Assembly (NCBI RefSeq): GCF_003334385.1
Contig: NZ_QOWN01000150.1
Reading direction: 5' to 3' (one strand)
Source: Escherichia coli
GTDB taxonomy: Bacteria; Pseudomonadota; Gammaproteobacteria; Enterobacterales; Enterobacteriaceae
Length of the DNA stretch: 695 nucleotides
Both the position numbers and the translations under genes were made by a program. Of this stretch, positions 1 to 695 are shown one piece after another. The notes below the pieces were generated by a model that was not told the DNA's origin, made no database searches, and worked only from the letters and a program-made list of their open reading frames with translations. Numbering within the stretch: position 1 is the stretch's first letter; each line of letters begins with the position of its first letter.

Positions 1-30
1 CGACAGGCCGTATCTGATTTTTGCGTTCAT
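1..30 (-). CDS. 5' end (first 10 codons) of a putative prophage endolysin, GH24 lysozyme, RrrQ/YdfQ-like; gene continues beyond the left window edge
   Basis: Seen in sequence: minus-strand ATG at complement of 28..30 followed by AAC GCA AAA ATC AGA TAC GGC CTG TCG = M-N-A-K-I-R-Y-G-L-S, open to the window edge. Established knowledge, recalled from memory and not searched: the E. coli K-12 Qin prophage lysozyme RrrQ begins MNAKIRYGLSAAVLA.... Caveats: only 30 bp visible, and no Shine-Dalgarno motif within 15 nt upstream on the minus strand. Confidence 0.35.
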   Translation of the reverse strand, partial: MNAKIRYGLS

Positions 31-51
31 GGATATTTATCAGGATTTATC
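31..51 (+). repeat. Tandem direct repeat GGAT(AT)TTATC (31..41 and 43..51) in the divergent intergenic region; a third GGATAT copy lies at 66..71; possible protein-binding or operator-like site
   Basis: Seen in sequence: GGATATTTATC at 31..41 and GGATTTATC at 43..51, spaced about one helical turn apart; GGATAT recurs at 66..71. They lie immediately upstream of the putative lysozyme ATG (read on the minus strand as GATAAAT repeats) and upstream of the plus-strand small ORF. No confident match to a known operator consensus. Confidence 0.25.
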
Positions 52-91
52 GGTTCCGAATCCCTGGATATGTTAAGTCTTCAGCCCGCCA

Positions 92-331
92 GTGGTGGGC
101 ACTGGCGTAAACTCAACAATGCGAGATGGCTGCCTCGCAAAGATAATCAAAGCAATGGATGCACTAAGTAAAAATAACGCTGTGTCAGATTACCTGATCG
201 CCGAAATGGAACATCTAATTAAAGAAATACCAAAGACAGTTGCTCGTGATGATAAAAGATTCCTCAAGGCTGCTGAAGATGCTCTTTCAACAGTGAAGCG
301 CAGCTTAGATGCGCCGCGCGATCAAGAATAG
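92..331 (+). CDS. Hypothetical small protein (79 aa from GTG at 92, or 70 aa from ATG at 119); possible moron-like ORF; could be a chance antisense ORF
   Basis: Seen in sequence: open frame bounded by in-frame TAA at 74..76 upstream and TAG at 329..331. Candidate starts are GTG 92 and ATG 119, neither preceded by a recognisable Shine-Dalgarno motif. The predicted peptide is helical and charged (rich in A/K/L/D/E), with no signal peptide or transmembrane segment. Codons include ATA x2, CTA x2, AGA, CGA. The last 68 bp (264..331) overlap the 3' end of the minus-strand CDS, so one of the two readings in that segment may be non-coding. Hand-counted GC of 121..240 is about 40%, below the window average. 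Confidence 0.3.
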   Translation: MVGTGVNSTMRDGCLAKIIKAMDALSKNNAVSDYLIAEMEHLIKEIPKTVARDDKRFLKAAEDALSTVKRSLDAPRDQE

Positions 332-695
332 TTTCTTTCATTTCATCTGCTGCAAGCACCTCATTTTTTGTTGGGATGCTTTTTTTCAATTCAGCGATAT
401 AGCACTCCAGTTTTTCAATGCGTGATTCAATATCATCGTTTTCTGACCGCAATGCCGTCGGTGGCGTCTTCAGAGAACCAGTAATTATTCCCGGTAGTTT
501 TCCTCTGTAGGTTATCAACACATCCTGCGCCTCTAAAATTATGGGGCGCTTTTCCGGCGACTGCTCATCCCCTTCACATAAAGCGGCAGCAATATCCATG
601 AAAAACTGCTTCGCCTGTTTTTTCGCCTCAGCTTCGTAAAACTCCAGCGTGGCACCTTCAGTACGGTCAAGACTAATCGCCACATATGGCAACAA
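264..695 (-). CDS. Hypothetical protein, 5'-partial (N-terminus lies beyond the right window edge); predicted compact N-terminal region followed by a charged helical, possibly coiled-coil, C-terminus; function unknown
   Basis: Seen in sequence: uninterrupted minus-strand reading frame of 143 sense codons from the window edge (695) to TGA (complement of 264..266). The first codon TTG at 693..695 is probably a window-edge artefact, not the true start. The only internal ATG (complement of 597..599) has no Shine-Dalgarno-like purine run upstream. Amino-acid composition is protein-like, with a heptad-like charged stretch DDIESRIEKLECYIAELKK. Codon usage resembles horizontally acquired enterobacterial genes (ATA x3, CTA x2, AGA). 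No transmembrane-like stretch, so it is not a holin. No family recognised from memory. Confidence 0.7.
   Translation of the reverse strand: MLPYVAISLDRTEGATLEFYEAEAKKQAKQFFMDIAAALCEGDEQSPEKRPIILEAQDVLITYRGKLPGIITGSLKTPPTALRSENDDIESRIEKLECYIAELKKSIPTKNEVLAADEMKETILDRAAHLSCASLLKEHLQQP

Follow-up and report, generated by a model that had tools for sequence, protein, structure and literature searches.

The R endolysin of phage 21 (R21) is the prototype of the signal-arrest-release (SAR) endolysins without a cysteine in the SAR segment. R21 has been shown to undergo signal-arrest-release, whereas for endolysins of the RrrQ type this is only predicted. P1 Lyz, another SAR endolysin, is regulated by disulfide isomerisation and carries a catalytic Cys in its motif and a further Cys in its SAR domain. 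The SAR domain was reportedly defined for P1 Lyz and R21.

Endolysins of Stx phages have been described as predicted SAR endolysins whose N-terminal domain resembles that of R21 and which are paired with pinholins (PMC8136144), and the H-19B-type holins were assigned to the pinholins, within the P21 holin S family (PMC10462455). Deletion of rrrQ, the endolysin gene of the cryptic prophage Qin in E. coli K-12, resulted in no peptidoglycan or vesicle phenotype (PMC12287860), which is unsurprising for a cryptic prophage. In the searched literature, no direct experiment on the RrrQ/H-19B R endolysin type was found, only SAR predictions.

Here, a 695-nt stretch of E. coli DNA (the window) was compared with these systems. 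On its minus strand, positions 30..1 are very probably where translation begins for R, the endolysin gene of a lambdoid, Stx-phage-like prophage in E. coli. The product would be a 177-aa T4-lysozyme-like GH24 muramidase of the RrrQ/H-19B R type, with a SAR mechanism by analogy with R21.

Endolysin start and catalytic domain

When the window was compared with complete E. coli genomes using megablast, one match was 100% identical over the full length (E. coli JNEC-KY176, NZ_AP045172.1 2398407-2399101, minus strand), and 42 further genomes held at least 80% of the window. 'YdfR family protein' and 'lysozyme' were annotated under the match in every genome listed among these megablast matches. The JNEC-KY176 locus with its flanks, hereafter L001, is identical to the window at L001 6001-6695. 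The endolysin gene body was read from L001 and not from the window, to the left of which the source contig might in principle differ.

The reverse complement of window 1-30 (ATGAACGCAAAAATCAGATACGGCCTGTCG) translates to MNAKIRYGLS, the decapeptide that had been proposed for this edge. On the minus strand, window 30..1 is read as the codons ATG, AAC, GCA, AAA, ATC, AGA, TAC, GGC, CTG and TCG. Thus, window 1..30 (minus strand) contains ten codons of a 177-aa R/RrrQ-type gene, beginning with the start codon (30..28), and the remainder of the gene lies past the left edge. The first base of the annotated lysozyme CDS (534 nt, L001 5497-6030, minus strand, WP_001537093.1) is window position 30. Stop codons in frame with the ATG lie 4 (TGA) and 3 (TAA) codons 5' of it, and the next in-frame ATG, GTG or TTG of the ORF is at codon 57, beyond the catalytic residues. 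Therefore, the ATG at window 30..28 is the sole usable start.

A chance match of the decapeptide was ruled out by the DNA itself, as the H-19B R gene begins with the same 30 nucleotides and K-12 rrrQ agrees at 29 of them. The original prediction had assigned the decapeptide to the Qin-type lysozyme. The family was correct but the exact peptide was not, since K-12 RrrQ begins with MNTKIRYGLS and MNAKIRYGLS is the Stx-phage/H-19B R variant.

An early stop beyond the left edge was looked for in L001 and none was found, the ORF running for 177 aa. The GH24 motif Glu-8aa-Asp/Cys-5aa-Thr, which had been expected in the extended translation, occurs there a single time, as E35-GNHTTAYR-D44-GSGIW-T50 (spacing E35-8aa-D44-5aa-T50). 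When the endolysin was aligned with H-19B R, RrrQ and RrrD, E35, D44 and T50 were invariant columns, and they are in register with the corresponding residues of R21 and RrrD.

Residues 33-167 matched Pfam PF00959 (Phage_lysozyme, GH24; E = 1.8e-24; model positions 2-125 of 125), and the protein matched the PHROG endolysin family phrog_7 (E = 1.9e-62). Among the structures in the PDB, matches included the solved endolysin 7m5i (E = 5.8e-20), phage 21 R (3hde, E = 1.9e-16; 3hde/3hdf at about 2-4e-16), K-12 RrrD (4zpu, E = 3.7e-16) and P22 lysozyme (2anv, E = 7e-10), the last of which starts only at residue 31. The NCBIfam gene-transfer-agent endolysin model was rejected (70 bits against a cutoff of 315), as it adds only 'lysozyme-like'. 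From these matches, the endolysin is classified as a GH24 phage lysozyme (PF00959) and a predicted muramidase with the putative triad E35/D44/T50.

The closest described relatives are H-19B R and RrrQ. H-19B R of the Stx1 phage (AAD17382.1) also has 177 aa and is 95% identical (169/177) without gaps, thus differing by 8 substitutions, and it begins with the same MNAKIRYGLS and the same 30-nt start. RrrQ (YdfQ, b1554) of the K-12 cryptic prophage Qin, to which a comparison had been suggested together with R21, has 177 aa as well and is 90% identical (160/177) without gaps; it has the same triad and N-terminal segment, and differs at the start by MNTK instead of MNAK. Length, near-full-length identity and the position of the gene in the order S-(ydfR)-R-Rz on one strand assign the predicted protein to the RrrQ/H-19B R type.

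The other protein compared, K-12 RrrD, is annotated like R21 and is 33% identical. R21 and RrrD (3hde, 3hdf, 4zpu) share with the endolysin the GH24 fold family, the E35/D44/T50 triad in the same numbering, a Cys-free, uncharged, Gly/Ala-rich N-terminal segment and an S21-type holin partner. However, the endolysin is 12 residues longer than RrrD. It has a 7-residue insertion in the C150...C157 region (noted within residues 109-172) that is without counterpart in RrrD, and of its 8 Cys only C52, C74 and C136 align with RrrD cysteines.

Lysis cassette and surrounding prophage

In L001, the endolysin gene R (5497-6030) is accompanied by further lysis genes on the minus strand. A class II holin of 71 aa (L001 6799-7014) is named 'class II holin family protein' in RefSeq and matches PHROG holins. 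A YdfR-like ORF (L001 6267-6794) is located between the holin and the endolysin. Beyond R, two small minus-strand ORFs of no assigned function are followed in the gene order by an Rz-like spanin (L001 4537-5004; phrog_13, E = 2.3e-74). Inside the spanin gene, an ORF of 61 aa (L001 4599-4784, minus strand), absent from the RefSeq annotation, is Rz1-like with a lipobox-like LVVSAC and a proline-rich tail, and presumably encodes an Rz1-type o-spanin. HNH endonuclease, terminase and capsid genes follow beyond the spanin, also on the minus strand.

The predicted lysis cassette is thus complete on one strand, with an S21-family holin, the YdfR-like ORF, R and Rz/Rz1. The gene order is the same as in Qin (essQ-ydfR-rrrQ-rzpQ/rzoQ). 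With the S holin located upstream of R in H-19B the holin shares 94% identity, and with EssD and EssQ 80% and 79%, respectively. Its N-terminus, MYQM, shows the Met1/Met4 spacing of EssD (MKSM) but has no Lys at position 2. In phage 21, Lys at position 2 marks the longer antiholin form.

A prophage lysis module with right-to-left polarity had been predicted, and this agrees with the neighbours, since the class II holin, the YdfR-family ORF and the Rz-like spanin are all encoded on the minus strand. The window is accordingly placed in the lysis cassette within the late operon of a lambdoid (Stx-phage-like) prophage, transcribed from right to left. The polarity applies to the lysis genes but not to a small ORF remnant on the opposite strand (window 92-331). 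The endolysin start gives the orientation, as it places the window in the lysis cassette, fixes the reading direction and accounts fully for the left 30 bases.

A Stx-phage architecture was also observed in the prophage (L001 9723-10692), where tRNA-Ile and two tRNA-Arg genes and a NanS-p-like SASA esterase gene precede the lysis cassette. The gap between the tRNA genes and the esterase gene is about 970 bp and contains no conspicuous ORF, the longest being a plus-strand ORF of 107 aa. The stxAB operon takes up about 1.24 kb. Thus, unlike the Stx-converting phages, the window-identical locus has no room for stx genes, and the prophage in L001 appears to be stx-negative.

The endolysin is already known as a RefSeq-named lysozyme and is a very common prophage gene. 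Genes of the RrrQ/H-19B R lysozyme type were found in 4249 of the 5426 complete E. coli genomes (~78%), with a single genome containing them at as many as 13 positions. Records of the exact protein come from 523 contigs, and lysozyme is the name of every one of the 3409 proteins in its 90% cluster.

Such abundance bears on whether the gene is intact but functionally idle, a defective-prophage relic like rrrQ in the cryptic Qin that takes no part in host lysis. A genome can contain as many as 13 copies, and many of these surely reside in defective prophages; the K-12 rrrQ deletion had no phenotype (PMC12287860), and the adjacent small plus-strand gene is visibly decayed. However, the endolysin ORF is without lesion, the identical protein is found on those 523 contigs, and the surrounding genes in L001 (holin, spanin, HNH endonuclease, small and large terminase, capsid) are likewise intact. 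We therefore regard idleness as unlikely, and it would concern activity in one host and not the identity of the feature, for which the R endolysin start is preferred.

N-terminal segment and proposed export of the enzyme

The hydrophobic, Ala/Gly-rich continuation that had been anticipated behind the decapeptide is present. K4 and R6 of the endolysin are followed by an uncharged stretch of 18 residues, Y7-P24 (YGLSAAILALITAGASAP), which is 61% Gly/Ala/Ser/Thr, contains no Cys and reaches a mean Kyte-Doolittle hydropathy peak of 1.9 over 15 residues. For R21, the corresponding value is 62% Gly/Ala/Ser/Thr. E35 sits 11 residues past the segment. Since the PF00959 match begins at residue 33 and the P22 lysozyme match at residue 31, residues 1-30 form an N-terminal extension. 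This N-terminus has the profile of an R21-type SAR domain, from which SAR behaviour may be expected.

By analogy with phage 21 R, K4, R6 and the stretch 7-24 would act as the signal-arrest-release domain. The Sec system would export the endolysin, and the enzyme would remain inactive and anchored in the inner membrane until this is depolarised by the S21-family pinholin, whose gene lies upstream. Thereupon the SAR segment would exit the bilayer and the endolysin would refold to its active form; murein would be degraded, and the outer membrane would then be disrupted by the Rz/Rz1 spanin.

P1 Lyz resembles the endolysin in its overall SAR logic and in having a motif of the E-8-D/C-5-T class. 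In contrast to P1 Lyz, the endolysin has Asp44 in the motif and no Cys in the SAR segment. Control would therefore be of the R21 refolding type and not of the P1 Lyz disulfide-isomerisation type.

A conventional, cleavable signal peptide of the Sec type, by which the lysozyme would be released as a soluble periplasmic enzyme and not SAR-tethered, was considered for the same residues and is judged quite improbable. K4 and R6 could serve as its n-region ahead of the hydrophobic core, and A19-G20-A21 before S22 could fit the -3/-1 rule, so that A19-G20-A21|S22 is a formally possible signal-peptidase site on sequence alone. However, the best A-x-A site (A21-S22-A23) directly precedes Pro24, and Pro at +1 blocks leader peptidase cleavage. 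The 61% Gly/Ala/Ser/Thr composition and the register also fit the SAR segment of R21 and RrrD, the partner is a pinholin-family holin, and a free active periplasmic muramidase would cause premature lysis.

A classical cytoplasmic endolysin of the kind known from lambda (R) and T4 (E), with the N-terminus as part of the globular fold and a need for large holin holes, is hardly credible: the GH24 fold is indeed common to cytoplasmic enzymes such as P22 lysozyme (2anv, E = 7e-10), but the matches from residues 31 and 33 leave residues 1-30 as a transmembrane-like extension, and the upstream holin belongs to the 71-aa class II S21 family and not to the lambda S type. The R21-type SAR endolysin remains the preferred reading.

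Spacer between holin and endolysin

The YdfR-like ORF occupies window 264..695 (minus strand) with its 3' two-thirds; its stop is at 266..264 and its start lies past the right edge (L001 6794). The ORF is intact with 176 aa, of which residues 1-112 match DUF1327 (E = 6.9e-40) and about 64 aa form a C-terminal extension, and phrog_2091 is matched over the full length. The exact protein is in the databases as 'YdfR family protein'. RefSeq flags this intact ORF as a pseudogene 'missing C-terminus', and 'terminase small subunit', apparently a mis-annotation, is the name given to some proteins of its 90% cluster.

Directly 5' of the R start, the 54-nt endolysin leader (window 31..84, minus strand) is conserved in H-19B, PhiR5_1 and G1/2, whereas only about 12 nt of it are in common with K-12 Qin. 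The leader is AT-rich beside the ATG and contains the in-frame TGA and TAA. No Shine-Dalgarno-like purine run was seen in the 20 nt 5' of the endolysin ATG. In Qin, the stop of ydfR and the ATG of rrrQ share bases (ATGA), while in the window about 470 bp separate the DUF1327 domain from R. The upstream YdfR-like ORF ends 233 nt from the R start in the window, so this variant lacks the coupling of R translation to ydfR that K-12 shows. With neither an SD nor an upstream ORF ending at the R start, the route of R translation initiation is not obvious. The predicted fold of the leader RNA was not better than that of shuffled sequences (z = -1.1), and no regulatory structure is claimed. Likewise, a promoter and terminator scan of the window gave nothing above shuffle expectation.

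A perfect 8-bp inverted repeat (CGCCAGTG / CACTGGCG, 5-nt loop) is located at window 87..107, about 57 nt 5' of the R start, and forms in the predicted leader RNA fold. PhiR5_1 retains it, in G1/2 a single base of one arm is substituted, and H-19B lacks it. As a terminator this hairpin was rejected, since no T-run stands behind it on either strand and the terminator scan did not call it. A 9-nt direct repeat at window 382/411 was treated as chance.

The small ORF on the plus strand (window 92..331, 79 aa as listed) is a 5'-truncated copy of phrog_18136, a phage family of unknown function, and no significant Pfam match was found for its protein. In PhiR5_1, an ORF in this position is labelled 'DUF1823'. 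The full 91-aa form with an ATG (WP_021565043.1) is present in G1/2 (3156-3431 of its locus, L002) and in about ten others among the genomes listed.

Comparison of the window with G1/2 showed a 100-bp deletion, through which the small gene has lost its start codon and ~26 codons at its 5' end, corresponding to positions 1 to 17 of the family profile. The junction lies at window 135..147, where one copy of a 13-nt direct repeat survives (TTATCTTTG[G/C]GAG in minus-strand writing), and the window form of the small gene is thus a product of deletion between 13-nt direct repeats. At 264-331, the 3' ends of this ORF and of the YdfR-like ORF overlap in antisense. In G1/2, a terminator-like hairpin with a T-run was also observed behind the small ORF (L002 3454-3481). 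At window 354-381 (plus strand) a G-to-A change is found in the stem of this hairpin and a terminator is no longer called, which fits decay of the small gene in the lineage of the window. H-19B shares the 54-nt leader but, in contrast to the window, has no YdfR-like ORF extension, plus-strand ORF or 87-107 hairpin between S and R.

Two kinds of additional control were considered. The extra cysteines (5 of the 8 unaligned with RrrD, with C150 and C157 at the insertion) could add periplasmic disulfide control or stabilisation unlike that of R21, and the lost ydfR coupling, the SD-less leader and the convergent gene could together give antisense or structural control of dosage. We hold this to be very doubtful. 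If disulfide or antisense/structural control were true, the RrrQ/H-19B R type might not be regulated exactly like R21.

From the endolysin start as such, nothing new on lysis biology follows. A modest value lies only in the side observations of an intact YdfR-like ORF that is called a pseudogene and of a decaying reverse small gene between S and R, and these two illustrate the variability of the holin-endolysin spacer.
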